A stretch of DNA of 64,000 bases. Source: a virus (Duplodnaviria; Heunggongvirae; Uroviricota; Caudoviricetes). The notes below the pieces were generated by a model, which searched no databases, was not told the DNA's origin, and worked only from the letters and a program-made list of their open reading frames with translations. The position numbers and the translations under genes are program-made. This document shows, one piece after another, positions 9,608-63,207 of the stretch. Position 1 is the stretch's first letter. The number at the start of each line of letters is the position of its first letter. The DNA is taken from IMG/VR virus record IMGVR_UViG_3300025000_000058. One strand, written 5' to 3'.

Positions 9608-9644
9608 GTTTTTTATTTATCATCTTAATTTGTTGCTTTTTATT

Positions 9645-9673
9645 ATTATACTATAATATTTTATCTTTGTCAA
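9645..9673 (-). promoter_or_regulatory. sigmaA promoter with AAAATATTA spacer motif
   Basis: TTGACA aagat AAAATATTA tag TATAAT. Confidence 0.8.
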
Positions 9674-9698
9674 TAGTATAATAATAAAAATATAACAA

Positions 9699-17247: not shown

Positions 17248-17276
17248 ATTATACACTAATATTTTATATTTGTCAA
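17248..17276 (-). promoter_or_regulatory. sigmaA promoter with AAAATATTA spacer motif
   Basis: TTGACA aatat AAAATATTA gtg TATAAT. Confidence 0.8.
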
Positions 17277-28112: not shown

Positions 28113-28141
28113 ATTATACTATAATATTTTAACTTTGTCAA
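28113..28141 (-). promoter_or_regulatory. sigmaA promoter with AAAATATTA spacer motif
   Basis: TTGACA aagtt AAAATATTA tag TATAAT. Confidence 0.8.
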
Positions 28142-40438: not shown

Positions 40439-40467
40439 ATTATACATTAATATTTTGTTCTTGTCAA
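40439..40467 (-). promoter_or_regulatory. sigmaA promoter with AAAATATTA spacer motif
   Basis: TTGACA agaac AAAATATTA atg TATAAT. Confidence 0.8.
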
Positions 40468-44620: not shown

Positions 44621-44723
44621 AATATTCCTCATACCTCCTATTCATTATTCTACCCCAAGAAGTCTTATTAAAACTTCTTGGACGCACTGAGCTTAAAGAC
44701 TATTTATACTGGCATCAGTCCAG

Positions 44724-45818
44724 TTATGCTGTTTTTTGTTCTTCACTATTACTATTCTGGTCAAACACACAACTATCTTCAATTCTATTTACTTCATCTT
44801 GATGTGCTTTTAAATATTCATTCCAACTATCAAGTAAAATCGCCTTTCTACCTCTAAGTGAAGTATTATTCCCTGTACCACTGGTAATAAACTTTAAATA
44901 CTTAGCATACATTGGCAATCTGTCTTTTTCTGCTTTTTCTTCTTGAATTTTTCTTTCAGCTTCAAAATTAAAGAACCAATTTGCGAACATCCCAATATAG
45001 TTCTCCATTTTATTATAGCCATTTTGTTTAATTAATTCTGAAGCAACCATATACAAAGAGTGTACAGTGGTTTTTTTCAACATTGCTTTGTCCACAAACT
45101 GTTTTTTATCAGGAAAACAATTTTGCAAAAAGTCCATTGTATTAATAATGGTTTCTTCTACTTTCTCAGAAACACCAGTCAAAATATTTTCTTCATAATA
45201 TTTATCAATTTCTGCATTACTTAATTTTAATTCTGCTTCAGGTTTTACTTCTATAAGTATGAATTGGCAAATTACTTCAGCATATGTCCCTCTGCTATCA
45301 TTAAATTGACAACTTTCAAAGAAATCATGATTACTTGCTAAACGTACAAACTCTCTTAATTGACCACTCATGGCATTACGTTTTTCTTGAGCTTTAAGTG
45401 GACTACCATTTTGTAATCTCTTAAACATTCTTTCTACTTCTTCTTTACTTCCATTAATAATAACAAGATGCAATTCTCTGGAATCAAAATAGTATTTTTG
45501 TTCAGGTGTTAAATCTTTATACTTTTTACCTTTAACACTAAACCCTTTAACATCAACGTCACCTAAAACAATTTTATTATTCAAAAATTTCATTATTGCT
45601 GTACTTCTTTGTACTCCATCAACCATCTCATATTTATCTTCTTCAATTTCACGTAAGATAATCTCAGGAACAATATAATCTCTTGCAATTGTATCAATCA
45701 ACAATTCTTGTTGCGCTTTGCCCCATACAACACCTCTTTGATAGTCTGGAGCTAGATTTGCGGCCTGTACCAAATTTAAGAAACTTCCCAATGGTAAACT
45801 TCTAGTATGTTTTTTCAT
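44724..45818 (-). CDS. DUF262 (ParB/GmrS-like) domain protein 1
   Basis: PDYQRGVVW, LIDTI, MVDGVQR. Confidence 0.85.
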   Translation of the reverse strand: MKKHTRSLPLGSFLNLVQAANLAPDYQRGVVWGKAQQELLIDTIARDYIVPEIILREIEEDKYEMVDGVQRSTAIMKFLNNKIVLGDVDVKGFSVKGKKYKDLTPEQKYYFDSRELHLVIINGSKEEVERMFKRLQNGSPLKAQEKRNAMSGQLREFVRLASNHDFFESCQFNDSRGTYAEVICQFILIEVKPEAELKLSNAEIDKYYEENILTGVSEKVEETIINTMDFLQNCFPDKKQFVDKAMLKKTTVHSLYMVASELIKQNGYNKMENYIGMFANWFFNFEAERKIQEEKAEKDRLPMYAKYLKFITSGTGNNTSLRGRKAILLDSWNEYLKAHQDEVNRIEDSCVFDQNSNSEEQKTA

Positions 45819-50235: not shown

Positions 50236-50315
50236 TTTTAATCTCCTTTCATTATTATATATATGTTCTCCATAAAGCCCCTTAGATTACTCCAAGGGAC
50301 TCTAACAAAACATAT

Positions 50316-51350
50316 TTATGCACTTCTCTTATTTGCTATTTTAAAAGCATTGTAAACATTTGTTAATTCCTTAATTCTAATAGCTACGTTTGCTACTTTG
50401 GTACTTCCTGCACTAGCTCCACTCCCATATGCCCCACCAACTTGATATGTTTTGGGATTAAAAAAGTCCTTCATACATTTAGCAAAACTTTGTGGACTTA
50501 ATCCTTCTTTGTCTGCTTTAACTGCCATCAAGAATATAATTGGAGTATGAACCTTTTTCAAAAATGTTTCTTTTGTGGGAAACGCTTGATTCAAATATAT
50601 TGTTGTATCTCTGATTAAATCATAATTTTCTTTAGAGTATTCATTATTTTTAATATCTGCAACGAATTCAGAAATAGCTTTGCTTGATAAATCAACCGCT
50701 TCACCATTATTAGCAACCATAGCCATAATTTGCAGTATCATTTCCTGATCAACAAAACGATTTCTTGCTTTGTCACTCATATTAACACTGGTAAAGAAGA
50801 ATGGATTTTCTGCTATCTCAGTAACAAATTCCATTATACCACTGCCAGCAGATACCCTTGTGAGTTCCATCTTTGTTAAAGATACTCCATTATTCAAGCG
50901 TAAAAACATTTCATCTCTTTCTTCATCACTCATGTTCTTGAAATAATATATAGTAATGTGTGTACTGGATATTGCATCTTGTACCTGCTCAGGAAATTCT
51001 GAAAACTTTTTACCTGAAATATCGAATTTTTCTTCTACACCATCCATATTAGCAATATATACTTTTGGTGTATTTTTTGCTATTACAAGCTTATCAGCAT
51101 ATAACTCGCCGATAGTAGTTAAACGCTGTTTCCCATCAATAACCCAAAATTCATTGTCGCCAAAATCTTGTACGAAAACTGGTAATATCGGATAATCAGT
51201 AGCTAAACTATGCACAAACAATGATTTTCTCATATCTTTTGCTTCATCCCAAACTAGATTTCTTTGAATTGCTAAATCAAAACGAAACTTATTAATGTTT
51301 TTCCCTATTGCCTTAACTGCCATTGGTCTGTTTGTTTTTGTAAATGCCAT
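50316..51350 (-). CDS. DUF262 (ParB/GmrS-like) domain protein 2
   Basis: IQRNLVW, FVHSL, VIDGKQR, FLRLNNG; promoter TTGACT-17-TAGAAT near 51424-51452. Confidence 0.85.
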   Translation of the reverse strand: MAFTKTNRPMAVKAIGKNINKFRFDLAIQRNLVWDEAKDMRKSLFVHSLATDYPILPVFVQDFGDNEFWVIDGKQRLTTIGELYADKLVIAKNTPKVYIANMDGVEEKFDISGKKFSEFPEQVQDAISSTHITIYYFKNMSDEERDEMFLRLNNGVSLTKMELTRVSAGSGIMEFVTEIAENPFFFTSVNMSDKARNRFVDQEMILQIMAMVANNGEAVDLSSKAISEFVADIKNNEYSKENYDLIRDTTIYLNQAFPTKETFLKKVHTPIIFLMAVKADKEGLSPQSFAKCMKDFFNPKTYQVGGAYGSGASAGSTKVANVAIRIKELTNVYNAFKIANKRSA

Positions 51351-51481
51351 TATAAAAATCCCCCTTATTATTATTTTTTATTTTTATGTAGTAATGCTTT
51401 CTGTTCAATTTCTAACTTAATACATTCTACCATAGAAATACTTTACAGTCAACTAATATTTTAACTTTATCAATATTAATT

Positions 51482-51896
51482 TTATAATTTATATGTTTTA
51501 GATATTTTATCCAATTCTTTATTCCCTTTAACATGCTCATTAATCCATACTCGTTTACCTGATTTAAGATTTCTCCAATGCCCTCTAACTTTCCAAGATT
51601 CAGTATGTCTTTCTATTTGTTTTTTCTTTTTGTTTTCTATTCCATCAAGGTTGACTTTATAGATAGACTTTTGTTATAATTTTTTCATTGTATACTATAG
51701 AAGCAATAGATCTTATTATATCCCCTTCTTGCTTAAAATATTGCCTGTAATTATTCTCATATATTATAACTCCTTCGGTTAATACAGGCATAAAATTCCT
51801 GACTAATTCTTTATTATTATCTCGCCATGTGAGCAATTGTTTTATATCTTTATTGTTAATTATTATTTTATCTATTGCATCATATTTAATACTCAC
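51482..51896 (-). pseudogene. Disrupted phage protein of the VRGHWR...KSGK.VWI family
   Basis: The 79-aa frame stops at 51657; the +1 frame continues KSIYKV...WKVRGHWRNLKSGKRVWINEHVKG to TAA at 51482. Confidence 0.6.
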
Positions 51897-52004
51897 ATTA
51901 ATACTCCTTTCATTATATAGTTAGTGGTGGGGCTTTTTATGCTAACCCCAAGCATTTTATCAATTATTATTAAATTACTATTGTTACTTTTGCCCAATAA
52001 TACT

Positions 52005-52253
52005 TTACAAAGAAGGTTGTTGTAACATAATATAAAAGGCATCTTTCTTCTTTGATTCTCCAACCCTAATATTATTACTCTTATTAAACTTAAAGATTTC
52101 TCCATTTTTTGATGAATTGTTGTTTTGGAATCTAATATGAACCTGTGTTTTAGTTATTCTAACTACTTCATGAGCTGATCCTAAGTTAATGTCTGCACCA
52201 AATTCAGTAAACTTAAATATTGAAACCTTTTCCCCAATAATTAAATTATTCAT
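52005..52253 (-). CDS. Hypothetical protein (82 aa)
   Basis: SD GGAGGA. Confidence 0.55.
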   Translation of the reverse strand: MNNLIIGEKVSIFKFTEFGADINLGSAHEVVRITKTQVHIRFQNNNSSKNGEIFKFNKSNNIRVGESKKKDAFYIMLQQPSL

Positions 52254-52339
52254 CTAAATATATTCCTCCACAACCCTCTTTCTGATTTTTTATACATCTC
52301 AGATACCTCGCCAAGCGCACTAGGATTCGATTCTAGCAT
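52250..52339 (-). CDS. 29-aa small ORF coupled to the next gene
   Basis: SD AGGAG; its stop overlaps the next start (ATGA). Confidence 0.4.
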   Translation of the reverse strand: MLESNPSALGEVSEMYKKSERGLWRNIFR

Positions 52340-52409
52340 GGTTAAATCTCCTACAGGTATAATCTATCCTGATTTTCTGAAACAGCCTCCTACAGCACCA
52401 TATAATATT

Positions 52410-52472
52410 TTACTTCAATTCCCCTCTACATGCTGACCAAATCAATATTATTAATGCTAATACCCAACCCAT
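52410..52472 (-). CDS. 20-aa hydrophobic peptide MGWVLALIILIWSACRGELK
   Basis: SD AAGGAGGT directly after promoter TTTACA-17-TATAAT (52486-52514). Confidence 0.5.
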   Translation of the reverse strand: MGWVLALIILIWSACRGELK

Positions 52473-52771
52473 AACATACCTCCTTATTATATAATATTTA
52501 TTGTAAATTGTAAATATATTTTGCTATGCTCATGTATATTTTATGTTCCACAGTTTAATTATATACATGAGCCAAGCAAAATATACTTGTTATATTAATT
52601 TACATAAAAATATAATTTTGTTAATAGCCAAAATACAGTAAATGATATTATACTTGTTGTAATAAATGGAAACTTATCAAAAATCAACATTAGATATAAT
52701 AATGGTTTGTTTTTGTCTGCAACGTAAATATAATTCTTATAATTTTTCATAATTAAAATCCCCTTTTATCT

Positions 52772-53308
52772 TTATGCACTCATTAATAATTCTTCTGCTA
52801 TTCTTCTAATCATGTAAAATCCTAAAAAATGTTCATATCTACCTCTATCACATGCTCTAGGATCATATATAATATTACCAGAATTATCAAAATTTTCTAC
52901 TTGTCTTTGCCCTACTTTATGACTCCATGTACCATTTATATTTTGTCTATACCAATGATAATCAGTACTACTATATGCAAATGCTACTTTCCAACAATCA
53001 ATATCATCTACGTATTCTTCATATGTTGATTCAATCATTTCATAACCTATATCATTTAAATCTTTTTTCGCTAAGTCTATCAATATATGAAAATTATCAT
53101 AAACATTTTCATTTCTACCTTCTTTTCTTTTGCCACCTAAATATCCTGGCTGGCAATGAAGATAATCTCTATATTTTTCTTTTGTATAAGGGTTAACTGG
53201 TTGATTAATGGCATATGTGTAACAATTATTATATTCATATGGCATAAAATTTTTATTATCTATTTGCAATCCATTGTATTTATTGTTATTATTTAATAAT
53301 AATGTCAT
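52772..53308 (-). CDS. Hypothetical protein with putative Cys-His dyad (papain-like?)
   Basis: NNCYTYA ... DYHWYRQ...WSHKVG. Confidence 0.5.
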   Translation of the reverse strand: MTLLLNNNNKYNGLQIDNKNFMPYEYNNCYTYAINQPVNPYTKEKYRDYLHCQPGYLGGKRKEGRNENVYDNFHILIDLAKKDLNDIGYEMIESTYEEYVDDIDCWKVAFAYSSTDYHWYRQNINGTWSHKVGQRQVENFDNSGNIIYDPRACDRGRYEHFLGFYMIRRIAEELLMSA

Positions 53309-53322
53309 TATTACACATCTCC

Positions 53323-53907
53323 TTATTCAATTATTAATGATTCTCTTTGTCCTTTAGATAAGTACCCTTTTTCTTCTAAAAACTTATATAAGCTTCTAAG
53401 AAAAATTATTCTGCCTTGATTATTTTGTTCCTTTGCAATTTCTGCATTTTTTATAAGTACATTTTTCCAGTATTCTTTATCAAATATACCATTACTTGTT
53501 ATTGTGTTAGATTCTAATGACTCTTTTTGTTTATTTGTTAAATAACCTTTTTCGTTTAATTGTTTTAATAAAGACTCATAATAATCGGTTTTTCTATTAT
53601 TTGTTTTTGCTTCATTGATTTTCTGTTCTAATTTATTTCTTAACCTTTTTATTTCTTTAGCTTTTTCCTTTGCTATTTTAAGTGCTAAAGAATGTTTAGG
53701 CATTGTCCAATCTAAATTTCTAACACATTCACTGCCAACAACAATAATTTCTCCTGTGTGAACATGCTTCATTTCATATTCATATCTAATTCTGTGACCG
53801 CACCCAGGATTCTCACATTTACCAGACATCGCACCTAAATCGTTGCAAACACCAGTCCATTTATAAACCGAGTTTTTTGATTCTTGATTGTTGCTTTGAT
53901 TATTCAT
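53323..53907 (-). CDS. Hypothetical protein with N-terminal metal-binding motif
   Basis: CENPGCGH...GSECV; internal repeat FYESLLKQLNEKGYLT / FLRSLYKFLEEKGYLS. Confidence 0.6.
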   Translation of the reverse strand: MNNQSNNQESKNSVYKWTGVCNDLGAMSGKCENPGCGHRIRYEYEMKHVHTGEIIVVGSECVRNLDWTMPKHSLALKIAKEKAKEIKRLRNKLEQKINEAKTNNRKTDYYESLLKQLNEKGYLTNKQKESLESNTITSNGIFDKEYWKNVLIKNAEIAKEQNNQGRIIFLRSLYKFLEEKGYLSKGQRESLIIE

Positions 53908-53992
53908 TAACAACACCTCTTTATTATATTTTGTTCTTTATAATATCTATTAATTTATGTATAAACATTATAAAAAACAATTAATATTTTAT

Positions 53993-54023
53993 ATTCGTTG
54001 GAGTAATAAAACAACTCCAACGA
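53993..54023. terminator. Hairpin downstream of the helicase gene
   Basis: ttcgttggagt/actccaacgaa, 11 bp. Confidence 0.6.
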
Positions 54024-54032
54024 ATTATTAAA

Positions 54033-55946
54033 TCAAGCCATTTGTTCTTTTACTTCTTCTAAATTTAATCCCTGCATTTCATTAATAAAAGTATAACCAT
54101 CAATTTCTTTTCCATTATAAAATTGTAAACTTGATACATACAACAACTCAATGGCCCTTGTTACAGCTACATATGCAAGCCTTCTTTCTTCTTCAACACC
54201 TATATTGCCTAATCCGCACCCATCAGCTTTAATGTGCGGTAATAAGCCATCACATACACCTGCAACAAACACAATTGGGAATTCTAAACCTTTGCTTCGG
54301 TGTATCGTCATTAATTTAACTGCATTTGTTGTTTCTTTGTTATTTTCAGCTTGTTTTACTAATTCAATGTAGGCTAAGAATGATTTTACTGTTTTGAAGT
54401 TTGTTATTGACATTGATAAACTATTTAAGTTTTCCAATATGTCTTTCTGTTCTTCTACATTTAATTCTTCTTCGCCAAGCATGTGCTTATCGTATCCACC
54501 TTGAATGCGAATATAATCAACCATTTCAGCAGGAGTTTCAAATTCTTTAAGCTTATTAATGAGAGAATAAAATTCACTACCTTTTTCTGTTCTTTTTGAT
54601 TTTGATTCAAATGGTACTGCTTCGACTAATGAAATACCTTTTTTCGTACTTCTGACAGTAACTTTATCAACAAAAGTATTGCCTAAATACCTTGTTGGAG
54701 TATTAATAACTCTTTTAAAACTATCATAATCATTATCATCAATTATTAAAGTAAGATAAGCAATTATGTCCTTAATTTCTTTCCTGTTATAAAACCCTAA
54801 CCCTCCAACAATCACATATGGTATACTTGCTTTTATTAATTCATCTTCAATTGCTCTGCTTTGGCTATTTGTACGATATAATACTGTAATATCCTTTTCA
54901 CTGTATCCTTCTGCCAATAAAGCCTTCATTTCATTTACAATTGCTTCACCTTCGGCATTTTCATCAGCATAATGGTTATAAACAACATCTTTCGTTGATT
55001 TTTTATTTGCTCTAGTGAAAATTGTTTCTAGCACTTGGCTAATATTGTTTTTAATTAAACAATTCGCTATATCAACAATACGCCCTTGACTTCTATAATT
55101 AGTGTCAAGATTGTAAATATTTGTTGTACCCCATTGCTGTCTGAAATTTACGATTAATTCTACATTGGCACTTCTAAATCCGTAAATACTTTGTTTATCA
55201 TCTCCTACAACGAAGACATTTTTATTTTCACCTGCCAATAGTTTCAATATACCTTCCTGAGCTGAATTAGTATCTTGGTATTCATCAACAAGAATGAATT
55301 GATATTTTTTTTGGTAATATGCAAGCACTTCAGGATTATCTCTAAGAAGATAATAGCATTCAATTAACATATCATCAAATTCGATAAGTTTTTCTCTAGC
55401 TTTTGCAAATTCATAACCACGATAAAAATACCTATATCTTTCAGGAGAATCTTTTTCATCTGGTAATAATAAATGTTCTTCAGGTGATATTAAATTATTC
55501 TTTTGAAAACCAACCCAACCTTGCATCTCGTTAGGTTTCTTTAATTGATCCCATTTCATAGCTTTAAGTAAATCACTGGCAATTTTTTTATACTTCCACT
55601 TAGGCCCAATTTCATACCATTGCTTAGGACTTCTTGTGTTTTTCCAATGTTCACGCAAAATACTGAAACAAATACTATGGAATGTACCAATTGTTACATT
55701 ATTTGCTTCAACGCCGATTAATTCTACTAAACGCTCTTTCATTTCTTCACTTGCTTTTTTGGTGAATGTTGTAGCTAAGATGTTTTGCGGTTTAACTTTA
55801 CATTGCTTAATTAAGTAAGCAATTCTACTAATTAATACTTTGGTTTTACCAGAACCAGCCCCAGCGATTACTACTGCTGGACTTTTAAAATGTTTTACGG
55901 CTAATAGCTGATTTCGATTTAGCCCTTCTAATATTTTTTCCGACAA
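54033..55946 (-). CDS. pcrA: UvrD/PcrA-family SF1 helicase
   Basis: AGAGSGKT, LVDEYQDT, VGDDKQSIYGFR, NYRS, LYRTN, MTIHRSKGLEF and EERRLAYVAVTRA; TTG start. Confidence 0.92.
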   Translation of the reverse strand: MSEKILEGLNRNQLLAVKHFKSPAVVIAGAGSGKTKVLISRIAYLIKQCKVKPQNILATTFTKKASEEMKERLVELIGVEANNVTIGTFHSICFSILREHWKNTRSPKQWYEIGPKWKYKKIASDLLKAMKWDQLKKPNEMQGWVGFQKNNLISPEEHLLLPDEKDSPERYRYFYRGYEFAKAREKLIEFDDMLIECYYLLRDNPEVLAYYQKKYQFILVDEYQDTNSAQEGILKLLAGENKNVFVVGDDKQSIYGFRSANVELIVNFRQQWGTTNIYNLDTNYRSQGRIVDIANCLIKNNISQVLETIFTRANKKSTKDVVYNHYADENAEGEAIVNEMKALLAEGYSEKDITVLYRTNSQSRAIEDELIKASIPYVIVGGLGFYNRKEIKDIIAYLTLIIDDNDYDSFKRVINTPTRYLGNTFVDKVTVRSTKKGISLVEAVPFESKSKRTEKGSEFYSLINKLKEFETPAEMVDYIRIQGGYDKHMLGEEELNVEEQKDILENLNSLSMSITNFKTVKSFLAYIELVKQAENNKETTNAVKLMTIHRSKGLEFPIVFVAGVCDGLLPHIKADGCGLGNIGVEEERRLAYVAVTRAIELLYVSSLQFYNGKEIDGYTFINEMQGLNLEEVKEQMA

Positions 55947-55968
55947 AATATAACACCTCATTTCATTT

Positions 55969-56184
55969 TTAATAATATGTAAGCTTTGCTAATTCATATC
56001 CTAAATTAAATGTCTGTTGTAGCATTTTAGCAACTCTTTTAGCTATATTATAAGTTTGTCTATGTGTGATTAATTTTCTGCTATTATTGTCACATAAATA
56101 TATCCCAAATAAGTTGCTTTTTTCTTTTACTATTTCAAAATAAGTATATTCTTCCGAAGTAGTATATTTAAATACCTGTTTCAT
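55969..56184 (-). CDS. Hypothetical protein (71 aa)
   Basis: SD present. Confidence 0.55.
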   Translation of the reverse strand: MKQVFKYTTSEEYTYFEIVKEKSNLFGIYLCDNNSRKLITHRQTYNIAKRVAKMLQQTFNLGYELAKLTYY

Positions 56185-56239
56185 TATTTACTTTCACACT
56201 CCTTTTAAATTTAATTGTATTATTTAAAAAACTCCTTCT

Positions 56240-56269
56240 ATTATACACTTAATATTTTGTTGTTGTCAA
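56240..56269 (-). promoter_or_regulatory. sigmaA promoter with AAAATATTA spacer motif
   Basis: TTGACA acaac AAAATATTA agtg TATAAT. Confidence 0.75.
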
Positions 56270-56321
56270 GTATAAATATTAAGTGCATATACAAGGAATT
56301 TATATACGACATTTTAATACG

Positions 56322-56528
56322 TTATATTATGTTATTGTTATTTTTATAACCTTGATAATATTTATTTGTTATTGTAAATAATTTTTTATACTTCTTTGCT
56401 TCTTCAAAACGTCCCATATCTACAGCTTCACAATATAAACGATAATAATGATTTGCAATTCCATAAATAATATCTAATACTCTTTTGTCATTTTGCATTT
56501 CATAAATCAATCTGTAAACATTTGACAT
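56322..56528 (-). CDS. Hypothetical protein (68 aa)
   Basis: SD GGAGGT. Confidence 0.6.
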   Translation of the reverse strand: MSNVYRLIYEMQNDKRVLDIIYGIANHYYRLYCEAVDMGRFEEAKKYKKLFTITNKYYQGYKNNNNII

Positions 56529-56542
56529 ATTAATACCTCCTT

Positions 56543-56764
56543 TTAATATTTATAATTGCACTTTGTACATTTTTCATGCCACATTGTTCTACAATCAAGA
56601 TCAGTTTCAGATATTAATTCTTGCCCACAATTAAAACAGAAACGATAATAATAATGTATTTTTTTATCTGTTATTCCGAACTTTTCTATAAACTTTTTAG
56701 ATTCTTCATCATTAGATAGATATTTTATACTTATTTCAGCTTTTATACTTATTGGTTTACTCAT
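56543..56764 (-). CDS. Zinc-ribbon protein
   Basis: CFNC and CTKC motifs. Confidence 0.6.
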   Translation of the reverse strand: MSKPISIKAEISIKYLSNDEESKKFIEKFGITDKKIHYYYRFCFNCGQELISETDLDCRTMWHEKCTKCNYKY

Positions 56765-56860
56765 TTAATAATAAACCTCCTTTTTTATAATTGCATAGTT
56801 TAATATTACTATTCTTTTATTTAGAGTGTTAAACTACTTTTTTGTGAATGTGGTCTTTTA

Positions 56861-57313
56861 TTAAGTTATTAGATTAATTATATTATTATTTAAATACTTT
56901 CTAATTTGACAAGTTAATTTTTCTCTATACTTACTACTATTAATATTATTAATAAATACTGTTAATTTTTCTTCTGAATCATTAGTAAATACTTTCATAT
57001 AGCATTCTACTAATTCATAAAAATGTTTTTTAATTTGACTAGCAGATGATAGTCGTGTTAATTTTTCTAATGTGCTCTCATAATCATAATCACTATTTTC
57101 ATTATTTTCTTCTAATAGACTCCAACAATCATTCATCACAATTTGAAATTTATTTAATATATTGTTTTTATCTTCTTGAGTTAAGTTGATAATTTGTTTT
57201 TTAAAACAATTTTCATTTATAATTGTATACATATTAATAGTAACAAGTTCTATTATAGATTTATATCCTTCAAAACATGTAGTATCAACTGGAATGTTTA
57301 AATATTTACTCAT
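56861..57313 (-). CDS. Hypothetical protein (150 aa)
   Basis: SD AGGAGA. Confidence 0.6.
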   Translation of the reverse strand: MSKYLNIPVDTTCFEGYKSIIELVTINMYTIINENCFKKQIINLTQEDKNNILNKFQIVMNDCWSLLEENNENSDYDYESTLEKLTRLSSASQIKKHFYELVECYMKVFTNDSEEKLTVFINNINSSKYREKLTCQIRKYLNNNIINLIT

Positions 57314-57447
57314 TTTATATTCTCCTTTAAAATTATTTTTTATAAATTGTTTTTGTTTTAGTTATTATTATAACCTCCTTAATACTTTATATTCTCTATA
57401 ATACCCTTTAATTTAACAGAACCAAAGGGTATTAACAAAATATAAAA

Positions 57448-57630
57448 TTATATTATTTTTCTAAAAAATTTGCCATACCAATAATATTTATTCGGATTGT
57501 CAATAAAATCTATTTTTATTTGTGGTGATACTTCCCATCCATGTTTTTTCATTTTCTCAATATGTTCATTTCTTTCTTCTTCTGAATCATAAATGTATTG
57601 AATAATAGTAACCTCAGAAAATTTTTGCAT
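57448..57630 (-). CDS. Hypothetical protein (60 aa)
   Basis: SD GGAGGT. Confidence 0.6.
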   Translation of the reverse strand: MQKFSEVTIIQYIYDSEEERNEHIEKMKKHGWEVSPQIKIDFIDNPNKYYWYGKFFRKII

Positions 57631-57636
57631 TTTTAT

Positions 57637-59016
57637 TTACCTCCTTCTTCTTTGCGTTCCCCTAGCAAACGCCCTACATGCTCTTGAAAATTCATTCTCA
57701 AATACCACTGTACAATCATCAGCCCTACTTACTTGGTGTACTACTTCATGTATTAATGTATCAAACAATTGATCCCAATCTTCAAGAATTTCTTTTTCAA
57801 TATATATTGTTTGTTCTTTGTGTACGCACAAGCCACTACATTTATTACCATGATCATCATGTAAATTTTCTTTGTAGCGAATTGTATACATTTCAATTTC
57901 CATTGGTGATAAATAATACTTTGTTATAAGTTTTTTAACTTCTTTAATATTGTCTTTTTCTTCTTCTTCTAATTCCCTAACTTTAACATCTTCCCCTACA
58001 ACATCACCATGATGTTGTAGGGTTTTGATTGAATCAAATATACCAAGCTTCTCAAACAATGGAATAATACCACTTACAGGTTTGTCAAGTAAATTATAGT
58101 GTCTATAAAGCACTTGCACATCAGCAGGAGAATTGCTGGCATAACATACTTTACTTCCCCATAATTCTTTTGCTACTGCTTGCCACAATTTGATATTTTT
58201 AGTGTTAAAGTAGTAAGAATCATATGTTTCCATACAACTCTCATTAATATTTAATAATACTGATTTTATTATTTCTTTGTCAATTGTTTCAGATAAAATG
58301 TACTCCCATACATGGTTGTTAATTGTCCATATACTTACAGCGTTTCTGTCTCTATTTGATAATCTTTTACCAACCAGATTATAACCATATAAGCACTTTA
58401 ATTTTAAATCAATTTCAACACCATTGATATACAATTTGTTTGCATCTTTGAGAATCGAATTCTTGGTAAACAAATGTTTATCATTATTGCTGGCACTGAT
58501 AAAACCAAAACAAGCATTAGCTTGATTGAATTCTTCCTCAGAACATTCCAATGAAAATCTACAACCTGCTATTCTATTATTACGATAGATATATAATACT
58601 AATTCTTCACTGCTTAAACTCCCAATCTCAAATTTAGCTTCAATGTCATAACCTGGGATTGAAATTTGAGCATACTTGCCACATTGGGAAGCAACTTTAA
58701 GTGATAATTTCATACCTTCGCCATTCTCACCTGGGCTATTGTTATCTTGACGTTGCTGTGAATTGCCAATGAGTAACATTTCCAATCCAAAACCTTTGCC
58801 ATAATCTTCCCATATTGCAATACCTGTTTGTTTGTCATAATAATGATTGCCATTTTGTCCCAATGTTTGTAAAGCATAAACATAATTTTGTGCAAATTCT
58901 TTGCAAGCATGAAGAATCGTCCAATTTGACAAATAATTGTTTGAAATAATTGTTTCCTTTCTTAAAAATAATTCCATTTGTTCTTGATTGTTGTTGATAT
59001 TTAAAGCTGGTGACAT
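57637..59016 (-). CDS. GHKL-type ATPase fused to a C-terminal HEXXH metallopeptidase-like domain
   Basis: KEFAQN, EDYGKG and GENGEGMK at the N-terminus; TLIHEVVHQ near the C-terminus. Confidence 0.7.
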   Translation of the reverse strand: MSPALNINNNQEQMELFLRKETIISNNYLSNWTILHACKEFAQNYVYALQTLGQNGNHYYDKQTGIAIWEDYGKGFGLEMLLIGNSQQRQDNNSPGENGEGMKLSLKVASQCGKYAQISIPGYDIEAKFEIGSLSSEELVLYIYRNNRIAGCRFSLECSEEEFNQANACFGFISASNNDKHLFTKNSILKDANKLYINGVEIDLKLKCLYGYNLVGKRLSNRDRNAVSIWTINNHVWEYILSETIDKEIIKSVLLNINESCMETYDSYYFNTKNIKLWQAVAKELWGSKVCYASNSPADVQVLYRHYNLLDKPVSGIIPLFEKLGIFDSIKTLQHHGDVVGEDVKVRELEEEEKDNIKEVKKLITKYYLSPMEIEMYTIRYKENLHDDHGNKCSGLCVHKEQTIYIEKEILEDWDQLFDTLIHEVVHQVSRADDCTVVFENEFSRACRAFARGTQRRRR

Positions 59017-59113
59017 AAATGTGAACCTCCTTGTTATATTTATTTTGTTAAAGTTATCTTTATAATATGCATTGTTTTTAATGAATATAACAATGCATAC
59101 AGTAAAAACAACT

Positions 59114-59560
59114 TTATTCTAATGATTTTTGTATTTTCTCTTTCATTTCCAAAAGTTTTTCTATCTCTTTTTTATTTTGTTCAATATATTTATCTATCTT
59201 TTTTATTTCCATTAATTTACTTTGCATTTCCATTTCAACAAAATATTCTTCAAGTGTCATGTTTTTATATTTTTCGCAATCTTTCATTGTATATACTATA
59301 GTAACAATTTTTCCTTTTCTATCCATCTTACATCGCTTATCTTCTATTAAATCTAATTCTAATTTAAATATTTCCCTATAATACCCATACTTAATTGCCC
59401 AAACACTATATACTAATTCCTTAACCCCCAATTTTCTAAATATTTTAACTGCTATTTGTCTTGCAGTATCATGGAATTCTCCAACATTGATTTTTTGCCC
59501 TTCGAATTGTTTCATTTCTTTATTCAATGCATTTATTATTGTTTTAATTGTAGCACTCAT
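59114..59560 (-). CDS. Hypothetical protein (148 aa)
   Basis: SD GGAGGT. Confidence 0.6.
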   Translation of the reverse strand: MSATIKTIINALNKEMKQFEGQKINVGEFHDTARQIAVKIFRKLGVKELVYSVWAIKYGYYREIFKLELDLIEDKRCKMDRKGKIVTIVYTMKDCEKYKNMTLEEYFVEMEMQSKLMEIKKIDKYIEQNKKEIEKLLEMKEKIQKSLE

Positions 59561-59648
59561 TTTAAATAAAACCTCCTTGTTATATTTATCATATTTCTTC
59601 TACACTACCCATTATTATATTAAATAATGAGTAGAAACAAGAAATCAT

Positions 59649-60506
59649 TTATATATTTTTAATTTTACCAATTATATCATGAAGATTTTTTTCAGTCATT
59701 ATTTTACCTCTTGGAGAACCAGCAATGCCAGCATGACCTCCTGCTTCATTCCCCCAAAGTGACTGAACAATATCTTTACAATTAATTGTATCATCACTGC
59801 AACTTATTGTAATGTTGTTAAATGTTTTATTAAAACTGATAATAACTTTAGCAATAGTTTTTAATGTTGGAGAATAATAACTTGCATTGCAAAATACTTT
59901 ATCTGTTATAAAAATACGATAATTTTCTGTTTCTTCAATTAGTAAACTCTCAGTAACACTCTGAATATTTTCTGCCCATTGTTTACCTTTTTTAATCCAA
60001 AATGAATTATCTCCATTAATTCCAAGTATTTCGTCTAATACTTGAGCATGTTGGAATATAGTATCTGTCACATCGGCAATTTCTGTTATGCGTGGTGCTC
60101 TATTTTCTGCTGTATAACTCCAATAGGCATTAAACAAATCTTGGATATGTTGAGGAAATTTATGGATATGATGAGGGCCATTTAAATCAATATATTCAGC
60201 GGCTTTCCAAAATTCGTCAATGTAATATTTATTACCAGTTAATGCCAATACACCACCGATAGTATCTAAATCTATATGAGAAACAATAATATTACTACCA
60301 ATAGGCAAAGAAAAATCTCTTAAATCTACATTACAAGGTGAAGGACAATTTTTATATTTGTCTACGTGATGTGCTAATGTTATTATACTGCCTTCCAATA
60401 CATTATTACCATACTCTGCTTCAACAGTAGCATGAGGAACAAACGGTATATTTTGTGCTAACTCCCTAGTCGGTACTAGATAGATATTTACTGTTCTTTT
60501 TGTCAT
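59649..60506 (-). CDS. DHH/DHHA1-like phosphoesterase
   Basis: SHIDLDTIGG and C-terminal AGGHAGIAGS. Confidence 0.55.
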   Translation of the reverse strand: MTKRTVNIYLVPTRELAQNIPFVPHATVEAEYGNNVLEGSIITLAHHVDKYKNCPSPCNVDLRDFSLPIGSNIIVSHIDLDTIGGVLALTGNKYYIDEFWKAAEYIDLNGPHHIHKFPQHIQDLFNAYWSYTAENRAPRITEIADVTDTIFQHAQVLDEILGINGDNSFWIKKGKQWAENIQSVTESLLIEETENYRIFITDKVFCNASYYSPTLKTIAKVIISFNKTFNNITISCSDDTINCKDIVQSLWGNEAGGHAGIAGSPRGKIMTEKNLHDIIGKIKNI

Positions 60507-60655
60507 GATAAAACCTCCATTTATTTTTAATTTAAGGCACTGTTTTAATTGCCTTTATAATATACACTGCTATTATTATATATGCAGTGTATACAGTAAA
60601 AACAACTTTTATTTCTTCTAATGATTTTTGTAATTTCTCTTTCATTTCTCACATA

Positions 60656-60802
60656 TTATTTTAATTGTTTAATACAGCTTTTCATTTCAGTCCCACACTT
60701 AGGACAATAACGTATTTCCTCACTGTTCCGATAATCATAGTCAGACGATCCCTCTTCTCCACATTTAGGGCATTTAGTAATCCACATTTCCTTCATTTCC
60801 AT
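60656..60802 (-). CDS. 48-aa zinc-ribbon protein
   Basis: SD AAGGAGAG; CPKC twice. Confidence 0.55.
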   Translation of the reverse strand: MEMKEMWITKCPKCGEEGSSDYDYRNSEEIRYCPKCGTEMKSCIKQLK

Positions 60803-60847
60803 AATAACACTCTCCTTTATTTAATCAGCATTTAATACATTATACTC

Positions 60848-61069
60848 CTAACAAAATATATTATACTTAGCAAAAACAACATACCTTCCATTGTTCTGTT
60901 TAAAACATCTAAATCTAATTATTGCTAATTCATGATAAATTCTTTTGTCAACATAAAAGCCATACTTTTTTGCTTCAGTAACCAATTCCATTAAATTATT
61001 ACTATGAATTCCTAACTCCAGCCCCTTTTTACCATGAATTGACATGTATATTTGATCTTGTCCCGACAT
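60848..61069 (-). CDS. Hypothetical protein (73 aa)
   Basis: SD present. Confidence 0.55.
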   Translation of the reverse strand: MSGQDQIYMSIHGKKGLELGIHSNNLMELVTEAKKYGFYVDKRIYHELAIIRFRCFKQNNGRYVVFAKYNIFC

Positions 61070-61173
61070 AATTATATCACAACTCCTTTTAATTTATAAT
61101 GTATTTAAAAGCCTTTATCCCATACATTAACCTTAATTCTTAGCGTTAATGTACAGATAAAAACTTCTAATAC

Positions 61174-62736
61174 TTAGCTGATTAATTTTCTTAATTTCAT
61201 ATATTGCAACAATTCGCTGTATTTATACATTTTTGCCCAATTTACAATATCGTTAAATGTCGTACTTTGAATATCTTGTAGTTTAACATCTCTAACAAAA
61301 TTTAACAAACACTGGCAGAATTGCAATGTAGCAACAAATGTTTCATACTTCAATGTACCTCTAAAAATTCTTAATTCAATTGTTTCTACATTTCTAATAT
61401 TTACGGTACAATAGCGGTCATGTTTATCTTCGGCATATTTTAATATTGTGTTAATGTCAGTATGGCAATATCTTTTGCACCATGTAGACAATTGGTCTTC
61501 TGTTCTACGTGAGAATAACACAAATTGATCCCAAAATACTTCTGTTACATATAACAATTTTGCAATATTATACTCTTGTTCTGTTCTAGTTTTACCGAAT
61601 GCCTTTCTGTTAATGTGAACATGTAAACCACACGTTCCAGAAGTATGACTTCTATAACCTAATTTTATAGCTTTTTTCATTAACTCCTGCCATTTGAATT
61701 CTTTTAGATGTTTTTCCAATGTGGCAGGGTGACTAACAATTTCAAAACCATTGCAAGCTCTGCTATCTTTATCACAAATTGACCCATCGTATTTGGTGTA
61801 AAATTTACTTTCATGTTTATTACCATTAACAATACTTAATAATCTTTTAGCGTTTTCATCACTGAAGCCACCTTCTCCAATTTCCAATTCTACACCAAAA
61901 AGGTCAGCTTGACTCTTTTTCATGTAAAATATTGGGTCTGGTCTATACTTATAATGATGAATAGCACTTGCCTCAAAAAAGCAGTTCATACAGTAATGTT
62001 TATTATTAATAATATAAATATTAGATTTTATTTCCACCCAATTACCACATTCAGGACATAAATCATATTTATTTCTGCAATTATTACAAATTCTTCTACC
62101 ATTATTGTCAATTCCATTACTTTCTTTAATTAAATGATAACCACCACAACACCTACAATGAAAAAATTCTAATCTGAAACATTCTCTGCAATAATATTTG
62201 CCTTGATGTTCTGTCGCGTCACAACTTTCCGTATTTACTACAACACCACAACAACTACATGGTTTAAAATATCTATCATAGCATTTATCACAAATTGGTT
62301 TGTTATTTTTGCCATATGTTTTGGTAACTTCAGAACGTAAGTGATAATTGTAACAATTAGAACACATTAAAAATTTCTCATTAAAACATTTTTCACAATA
62401 ATCAATATTATCCTTCCTATACATATAGTCTTCATGAATTTTTTCGCCACAACATTTACATGGTTTATAGTATCTATCATGACATTTACTACATATCATT
62501 CTGCCATTGGAATCTGTTATTAACTCTGATTTTAAAAGGTGTTTTCCACATTCACTACAATATGAATATTTTTCATTGAAGCATTTATAACATAATTTTT
62601 CTTCAGTTAAAACGTACATACTTCTAACATTTTTTTCAATTCCGCAGTCTGTACATACTTCAGTTATAACTGGGCTCCTTAGTGGTTGTAGTCTAAAACT
62701 GTAATTCATGGTATAATTCATGTTAGATATTGTCAT
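61174..62736 (-). CDS. Putative amidoligase (COOH-NH2 ligase, Amidoligase_2) with N-terminal Cys-rich repeats
   Basis: FGVELE, DGSI, FEIVSHP, TCGLHVHI, RY..VN and TIELRIF motifs. Confidence 0.85.
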   Translation of the reverse strand: MTISNMNYTMNYSFRLQPLRSPVITEVCTDCGIEKNVRSMYVLTEEKLCYKCFNEKYSYCSECGKHLLKSELITDSNGRMICSKCHDRYYKPCKCCGEKIHEDYMYRKDNIDYCEKCFNEKFLMCSNCYNYHLRSEVTKTYGKNNKPICDKCYDRYFKPCSCCGVVVNTESCDATEHQGKYYCRECFRLEFFHCRCCGGYHLIKESNGIDNNGRRICNNCRNKYDLCPECGNWVEIKSNIYIINNKHYCMNCFFEASAIHHYKYRPDPIFYMKKSQADLFGVELEIGEGGFSDENAKRLLSIVNGNKHESKFYTKYDGSICDKDSRACNGFEIVSHPATLEKHLKEFKWQELMKKAIKLGYRSHTSGTCGLHVHINRKAFGKTRTEQEYNIAKLLYVTEVFWDQFVLFSRRTEDQLSTWCKRYCHTDINTILKYAEDKHDRYCTVNIRNVETIELRIFRGTLKYETFVATLQFCQCLLNFVRDVKLQDIQSTTFNDIVNWAKMYKYSELLQYMKLRKLIS

Positions 62737-62852
62737 AATAAAAAATCCCCCTCATTTTATTATATTTTTGTTATGTTAGAATCATGATGTCTTTATTCTA
62801 TACACTATTATAATTAATATTTTATACTTGCTAGTGTATAGATAAAAACATC

Positions 62853-63119
62853 TTAAATAACATCTTGTAGATTTATTTCTTTAGGTATAAAACTATTTTT
62901 TTCATAACAAAATGTATAATTTTCTTTTAAACAAGTAGAACATATTAATCTTTTACTTCTGTTAATACAAAATAATGTTTCTGGCAATGCGAATTCTTCA
63001 CAATCAGCACATTTAATATAATGCTGTTCTATGCAATTTTCGCATATTTCTTTATTGCTTATATCTGGAAATGTTTCGCTGGCTTGTTTTTTACAATGGT
63101 GACATTGTTTTAATTTAAT
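62853..63119 (-). CDS. 88-aa Cys-rich protein, ATT start, missing from the ORF track
   Basis: AAAGGAGGT SD 6 nt before ATT; no ATG/GTG/TTG near the 5' end; CHHC, CENC, CADC and CSTC motifs. Confidence 0.75.
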   Translation of the reverse strand: MKLKQCHHCKKQASETFPDISNKEICENCIEQHYIKCADCEEFALPETLFCINRSKRLICSTCLKENYTFCYEKNSFIPKEINLQDVI

Positions 63120-63207
63120 AATTATACCTCCTTTATTTTATATATTATTAAAAATGCTTTTAATGCTATACTGTTATAATTAACCAGTATAGACATAAAA
63201 ACACTCT

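Follow-up and report, generated by a model that had tools for sequence, protein, structure and literature searches.

Strand-specific hairpins between the accessory genes of an AT-rich phage genome as candidate RNase III processing sites and cassette junctions

Eleven hairpins in the accessory gene block

We analysed a window of 64,000 nt of the IMG/VR virus record IMGVR_UViG_3300025000_000058 (all coordinates below are positions within this window), in which long hairpins occupy gaps between accessory genes. The minus strand holds all genes from ~8 kb to the window end, and the G+C content is ~26%. A DnaE-type polymerase shares 38% identity with SPbeta-group phages; other genes encode a ribonucleotide reductase, a RecJ-like exonuclease, a DnaB-like helicase, an RNA ligase and a CCA-adding enzyme. 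The hairpins lie in a block of accessory genes upstream of the replication genes, and nearly all of these accessory genes have a long hairpin behind them. The block encodes many small proteins of unknown function along with a UvrD-type helicase, an amidoligase and a GmrSD_N-like protein.

Every minus-strand intergenic gap was folded with RNAfold, and z-scores were computed against dinucleotide-preserving shuffles (n = 200). All nine hairpins that had been described on the minus strand from inspection of the letters (hereafter, the sequence-only reading) were recovered in their places: they consist of 20–30 pairs, with folding energies (ΔG) of −16.5 to −27.6 kcal/mol and z-scores of −5.5 to −7.5, and 0/200 shuffles folded as well. 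Beyond these nine, two hairpins of the same kind were found at 52512–52588 and 56229–56301, bringing the total to 11. Each of the 11 sits in the intercistronic slot, that is, between a stop codon and the next Shine–Dalgarno (SD) sequence on the coding strand, just as had been claimed; seven begin 0–6 nt past the stop codon, and the next start follows 14–71 nt beyond the hairpin in all 11 cases, if an ATT-start Cys-rich open reading frame (ORF) and a possible 20-codon ORF are counted. Stems of 20–30 pairs amount to roughly two helical turns, and in 10 of the 11 the helix is interrupted by a mid-stem irregularity. An exact 2×2 internal loop, reported for five, is present in three copies (59052, 60547 and 52512), so that this part of the description was overstated; seven copies have 1×1, 1×2 or bulge irregularities, and 53931–53980 has none.

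The hairpins and the features directly associated with them are given here in order of position. Six form a core family with a common lower stem (see the next section), and scores in bits refer to R1, a covariance model built from these six core copies.

50261–50315 (minus): hairpin of 24 bp with 5 G·U pairs, 0 nt past the stop codon of the 344-aa GmrSD_N-like gene, next start 25 nt on; ΔG −27.6, z −7.3 (plus strand, −10.4).
52486–52514 (minus): promoter-like site, which comes after hairpin 52512–52588.
52512–52588 (minus): additional hairpin of 26 bp with a 2×2 loop, 6 nt past the stop codon; ΔG −30.7, z −7.9.
53931–53980 (minus): core-family hairpin, 20/20 paired with 3 G·U, in agreement with its first description; next start at 14 nt; 30.3 bits.
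53994–54024 (minus): shorter, GC-richer hairpin, 8 nt past the helicase stop codon and immediately ahead of 53931–53980.
56229–56301 (minus): promoter-embedded hairpin of 30 bp; 22.4 bits.
56240–56269 (minus): TTGACA-N18-TATAAT promoter in the loop and 3′ arm of hairpin 56229–56301.
57385–57447 (minus): hairpin of 26–27 bp, 0 nt past the stop codon.
59052–59113 (minus): core-family hairpin with a lower stem of 11 bp, a 2×2 loop and an upper stem of 12 bp, 0 nt past the stop codon of the 148-aa gene; 69.9 bits.
59593–59645 (minus): hairpin of 20 bp, 3 nt past the stop codon; 26.4 bits, E 0.035.
60547–60607 (minus): core-family hairpin, paralogue of 59052–59113; 70.7 bits.
61101–61173 (minus): core-family hairpin of 30 bp, 0 nt past the stop codon of the 520-aa amidoligase gene; 59.4 bits.
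62786–62852 (minus): core-family hairpin of 21 bp, 0 nt past the stop codon; the 24-nt loop contains the AAAATATTA motif and a −10-like hexamer; 66 bits.
63152–63206 (minus): core-family hairpin of 21 bp, 1 nt past the stop codon; the ATT-start Cys-rich ORF (62853–63122) begins 29 nt later; 55.5 bits.

Strand asymmetry and co-variation of the stems

In AT-rich DNA, the number of hairpins with at least 16 pairs is a poor statistic, since shuffles give about five per 15 gaps, and the argument is therefore built on energies, z-scores and wobble asymmetry. The plus-strand fold is the weaker one for all 11 hairpins: summed RNA energies are −255 kcal/mol for the minus strand versus −168 kcal/mol for the plus strand, whereas with DNA parameters (−121 versus −100) both strands fold weakly and nearly equally. 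The coding-strand fold of the gaps in the array contains 34 G·U pairs versus 2 A·C, and the wobbles are on the transcribed strand in 11/11 copies, as the sequence-only reading had maintained when it called the G-U pairing specific to the coding strand. When the opposite strand is folded, the counts are reversed (3 G·U versus 12 A·C), so the folding program cannot be the source of the asymmetry.

Had the palindrome been maintained as a cruciform or for the binding of a protein to DNA, symmetrical decay would be expected. Wobble asymmetry and strand energies together indicate that selection acts on the structure in the transcript or, as the less likely alternative, in single-stranded minus-strand DNA. 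We conclude that the hairpin family is a real, strand-specific RNA structure element; a DNA operator or cruciform was rejected in view of the strand asymmetry and the variable inner stems.

The hairpins do not have the appearance of terminators. No stem is followed by a U-tract (0/11), in line with the lack of a 3′ U-tail noted before; intrinsic termination was rejected on the grounds that the stems are AU-rich and their 3′ flanks A-rich, and that the terminator scan calls none. A full (−35/−10) promoter is absent from 10 of the 11; the single one, of the sigma-70 type (12/12), belongs to 56229–56301. It is highly improbable that the stems are atypical terminators or attenuators devoid of a U-tract, or else strand-specific signals in single-stranded DNA such as priming sites. 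Stable stems at gene ends would suit either, and G·T pairs give the minus strand a slight edge as DNA, but the phage has ordinary U-tailed terminators elsewhere on the minus strand of the window, the flanks 3′ of the stems are A-rich on both strands, the genes downstream of the stems are mostly without promoters of their own, and the DNA folding energies are low and near-equal between strands.

The six core copies (59052, 60547, 61101, 62786, 63152 and 53931) align with a common GUUUUUA/UAAAG lower stem, in which a U·G wobble is invariant (6/6); the flanks first given as GUUUUUA...AUAAAG and ascribed to most of the hairpins are thus found in these six, in the form GUUUUUA...UAAAG. Nine of the 19 pairs in the alignment have changed on both sides with pairing kept, and 88% of the cells are paired. 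Co-variation values such as these were reached by 0/500 shuffles, bearing out the suspected compensatory change in the inner stems, and the paired fraction falls to 40–55% when the partners are slid by 1–3 columns.

Outside its training set, R1 also detects 59593–59645 (26.4 bits) and, weakly, 56229–56301, and the family detected in this way is limited to the accessory block at 53.9–63.2 kb: a scan of the replication block on the same strand (8–50 kb) gave no convincing match. The 14 IMG/VR loci retrieved with a hairpin DNA pattern all failed to score with R1. In Rfam, the hairpins have no matches at the gathering cut-offs or at E ≤ 1, save chance-level rows far below the cut-offs, and blastn of one hairpin against GenBank phages returned chance matches only.

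An invariant lower stem, its U·G wobble and an upper stem that is free to vary, in a family private to this phage lineage, are what would be expected of sites for a dedicated phage RNA-binding protein (a translational repressor, an antiterminator or a nuclease) that reads the lower stem. We consider such a protein quite improbable: five other hairpins occupy equivalent slots without the core lower-stem sequence, no candidate protein was identified, and gene conversion or a recent common origin of the copies may account for the invariance.

Gene remnants and gene exchange at the hairpins

The gap of 149 nt ahead of hairpin 60547–60607 holds a copy of the end of a gene, directly followed by the hairpin. 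The flanks of this hairpin and of 59052–59113 are ~97% identical, and the upper stems differ at three pairs, all of them compensated. That remnant and hairpin are still joined implies that the 3′ gene end and the hairpin were duplicated together and that the rest of the gene was lost. An ORF for a small membrane peptide of 37 aa that runs across 60547–60607 was dismissed as a by-product of the U-rich arm and of this remnant. Two features of the junctions belong here.

57362–57380 (minus): orphan SD (AAGGAGG), which no gene follows in the window; it starts the 49-aa gene in contig L058.
60608–60648 (minus): gene remnant, the final ~11 codons of a gene that resembled the 148-aa ORF (59114–59560), joined to hairpin 60547–60607 (from alignment).

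Gene content was compared with one relative only, L058, a metagenome contig of 3.5 kb with ~90% DNA identity. L058 is without the 60-aa gene that is found directly upstream of 57385–57447 in the window; in place of the 150-aa and 73-aa genes downstream of the same hairpin it carries the unrelated 49-aa gene, and in place of the 71-aa gene behind 56229–56301 an unrelated 54-aa gene. The stem of 57385–57447 is 100% identical in L058, with differences in the loop and in both flanks; 56229–56301 is likewise conserved, one G·U pair of the window being A-U there. All differences in gene content (3/3, in one short contig) have a boundary at one of these two hairpins.

Since conservation is seen in the junction modules but does not extend to the genes that flank them, the modules would, besides any function in the transcript, act as crossover points for the gain, loss and replacement of cassettes. 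It is possible to go further and to regard them as junction modules at the level of DNA (akin to the promoter-early stem-loop, PeSL, elements of phages or to miniature inverted-repeat transposable elements, MITEs) that serve cassette recombination or mobility, with the RNA fold as a by-product of the palindrome. The restriction of the family to the variable accessory block, the remnant joined to one copy, the three differences from L058 that abut modules and the precedent of the PeSLs (PMC2839356, PMC4122927) agree with such modules. Nevertheless, we regard a purely DNA-level function as improbable: a G·U to A·C ratio of 34:2 and an orientation with transcription in 11/11 copies are unexpected of a DNA palindrome, no target-site duplication was seen at the flanks, the conserved segments (7–11 nt) are short for homologous recombination, and 10/11 copies are without a full promoter and 0/11 have a terminator tail.

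A mobile palindrome similar to MITEs or to repetitive extragenic palindromic (REP) elements was itself set aside, in view of the single orientation of the copies, the absence of flank duplication and the divergence of copies with compensated changes. The attC sites of integrons were rejected as well: the ends GTTTTTA and TAAAG(A/G)C misfit the core sites RYYYAAC and GTTRRRY. No active tyrosine recombinase was identified in the window.

Processing of the transcript and comparison with known systems

The features of the sequence, i.e., strand, compensation, lack of a U-tail, helix and position, all fit a non-terminator, intercistronic signal that works at the RNA level. The hairpins would be intercistronic elements of a long co-directional phage transcript, in which the message of each accessory gene would end in a non-terminating hairpin of 20–30 pairs ahead of the next ribosome-binding site. 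The double-strand-specific RNase III of the host would cut at the mid-stem irregularity, yielding single-gene RNA pieces: upstream of the cut, the RNA would retain a 3′ stem as protection, and downstream of it, the next piece would begin shortly before a strong SD. The transcript would be an early one, judging only from the sigma-70-type promoters and its position upstream of the replication genes.

By analogy with characterised substrates, the reading of the stems as RNase III sites is plausible. An idealised bacterial RNase III substrate has 22 bp, cutting is limited to a single strand where the target contains loops, bulges or mismatches, and 3′ hairpins left by RNase III stabilise RNA (PMC3867540). 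The bubble sites of T7 and the internal-loop sites of SP82 receive a single cut, on the downstream side (PMC1935012), and RNase III targets in the early RNA of SP82 have long been established (Panganiban & Whiteley 1983, as cited in PMC4838370 and PMC1935012). Circumstantial support for cleavage at junctions comes from a Pistol self-cleaving ribozyme (RF02679; 58.5 bits versus a cut-off of 34.5) at 44648–44724 (minus) in the same stop-to-SD slot. It follows a GmrSD_N-like gene of 364 aa, starting with the final base of that gene's stop codon, and ends just before the SD of the next small gene. The paralogue of the 364-aa gene with 27% identity (50316–51350) has the long hairpin 50261–50315 instead, so that one slot is filled by an RNA that is certain to cut itself and others by long hairpins. 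Pistol RNAs cluster near phage genes of Firmicutes (PMC4604425).

Much of this evidence would fit uncut stems equally. Such stems would be passive barriers that stop PNPase (3′-to-5′) or RNase J (5′-to-3′), so that the cistrons decay independently, with cleavage taking place elsewhere; RNase Y, for instance, could cut the AU-rich unpaired RNA beside the stem. Strand-specific folding, co-variation and stability are accommodated just as well, the stems are anchored 0–6 nt past stop codons, the strong SDs that follow could be 5′ stabilisers, and no feature of the sequence demands RNase III. All the same, passive barriers seem unlikely to us: long, AU-rich stems that bear wobbles block exonucleases poorly in comparison with short GC-rich stems, and helices of ≥20 bp are expected RNase III substrates wherever the enzyme is present (PMC3867540).

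Several observations weigh against RNase III-processed junctions. No RNase III signature (PROSITE PS00517) occurs in the six frames of the window, and a host enzyme would thus be needed. RNase III does not explain the invariant sequence of the lower stem, and the restriction to the accessory block is more in keeping with an element tied to cassettes than with a system for processing in general. Template switching in replication can create compensated changes of inverted repeats in one step (PMC8794818), and co-variation by itself is consequently no proof that selection acts on RNA; wobble asymmetry provides the stronger case. As for the crossovers, one boundary of each of the three L058 differences falls at a junction free of hairpins, and the indel evidence comes from a single contig of 3.5 kb, with which a crossover role is consistent but by which it is not proven. 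The sequence-only reading had already proposed recombination at the hairpins; the remnant and the three of three differences adjoining modules favour that proposal, while the single short contig and the hairpin-free boundaries tell against it. On balance, and with moderate confidence, we take intercistronic hairpins processed by RNase III and doubling as crossover points for cassettes to be the best explanation of the whole; which nuclease acts, how stability is affected and when the genes are expressed are parts of it that we infer.

The hairpins resemble the RNase III sites of T7 and SP82 in their predicted working and the PeSL junctions at the genome level. With the former (R0.3–R1.3 type in T7, Bs-RNase III sites in Bacillus phage SP82) they share repeated intercistronic hairpins on a long early-type transcript without termination, helices of about two turns broken by internal loops or bulges, and a related sequence family within one phage. 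They differ in that no sequence similarity to those sites is shown, that the elements of the window are known from sequence alone, and that these are limited to the accessory block, coincide with gene gain and loss and have an invariant lower-stem U·G. The PeSLs of T4-type phages are similar in being short conserved modules between the small genes of a hyperplastic region, where indels and replacements distinguish close relatives (PMC2839356, PMC4122927). However, a PeSL is a composite of terminator and promoter, whereas the window has one composite of promoter and hairpin (56229–56301) and no U-tails: of the two marks of the class, indels at modules are seen here (in one short contig) and the composite structure is not.

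The SPBRE sites of SPbeta, bound by MrpR (PMC10516654), are also repeated intergenic elements in the early cluster of an SPbeta-related genome. They are 15-bp DNA motifs in promoter regions to which a repressor binds, while the hairpins are not at promoters and operate at the RNA level. SPbeta itself has no comparable hairpin array: its median gap measures 44 nt and gap folding is weak. The promoter-spacer motif AAAATATTA is a better candidate for an SPBRE counterpart than the hairpins. This 9-mer occurs 42 times across the window versus 14.9 expected, nearly always on the coding strand (e.g., 9654–9662, 17257–17265, 28122–28130, 40448–40456 and 56250–56258, minus), and in at least five places it fills the space between the TTGACA and TATAAT boxes of a promoter; for an MrpR-like repressor it may play the part that the SPBRE operator has in SPbeta (PMC10516654). 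A second promoter-embedded hairpin, comparable to 56229–56301, is present at 9637–9690 (minus), where an 18-bp AU stem surrounds a consensus promoter; its folding energy is near-equal on both strands.

No close relative of the region was found amongst GenBank phages with megablast, and scans of IMG/VR with the 520-aa and 459-aa proteins of the window gave no match. The helicase cluster P0001 is present on 11 contigs (≤174 kb) and its near-identical member P0121 on three more (≤166 kb). In one IMG/VR contig, L001, which encodes a helicase with 40% identity, most of the small-gene gaps upstream and downstream of the helicase gene contain a hairpin; the gaps have a median of 94 nt and show 52 G·U versus 5 A·C. 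Each junction there has three parts. The first is a fixed GC-rich stem; next comes a long stem, whose base is conserved and whose top varies yet is perfectly paired, and then a third small stem and a conserved SD. In sequence these junctions are unrelated to those of the window, but they follow the same logic. Two hairpin families can be distinguished in L001 (1–10000 and 12000–21950, plus strand), the first being the tripartite modules with the fixed GC stem; in the family downstream of the helicase gene, a −10-like hexamer forms the loop of G·U-rich stems (e.g., −22.5 versus −7.0 kcal/mol by strand).

A more far-reaching, and in our estimation improbable, idea is that the hairpins are the RNA side of a dedicated cassette system, with a junction module at the 3′ end of each accessory gene. 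The fixed lower stem, with its invariant U·G wobble, would be read by a specific factor, and the upper stem, fast-evolving and always compensated, would give each junction its identity. The modules would then drive the gain, loss and reordering of genes, as a phage counterpart of integron attC sites that works via RNA processing and homologous exchange, with parallel versions of different sequence in distant relatives such as L001.

The hairpins are a known kind of phage intercistronic signal in a new sequence family, not a new principle. Should the stems be processing sites, the accessory genes of this phage, and of at least one distant relative, would be organised as messages that are cut from a single transcript and stabilised separately. 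The principle of T7 and SP82 would then apply also to uncultured phages that are related to SPbeta and have low-GC hosts. An association with gene gain and loss would account for the shuffling of small genes for host takeover and anti-defence in such phages without disturbance of the signals for their expression. The covariance model also marks cassette boundaries and thereby aids gene calling in very AT-rich phage genomes, as exemplified by the ATT-start ORF after 63152–63206 and by the gene remnant ahead of 60547–60607.

That ORF (62853–63122, minus) encodes a Cys-rich protein of 89 aa and has its ATT start 7 nt past a strong SD; standard start-codon rules miss it. The possible 20-codon ORF (52410–52472, minus) specifies a hydrophobic peptide and lies behind the promoter-like site and a strong SD. 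It is located in a GC-richer stretch of ~226 nt (52256–52481, minus), which folds at −42 kcal/mol on the coding strand versus −20 kcal/mol on the other, with 14 G·U pairs; a peptide resembling type I toxins could be encoded here, or the stretch could be a structured RNA. Finally, 54122–54220 (minus) matches RF03531, a Clostridioides difficile small RNA inside a helicase gene, with 42 bits, below the cut-off of 65; this match probably reflects mere nucleotide conservation of the helicase gene.

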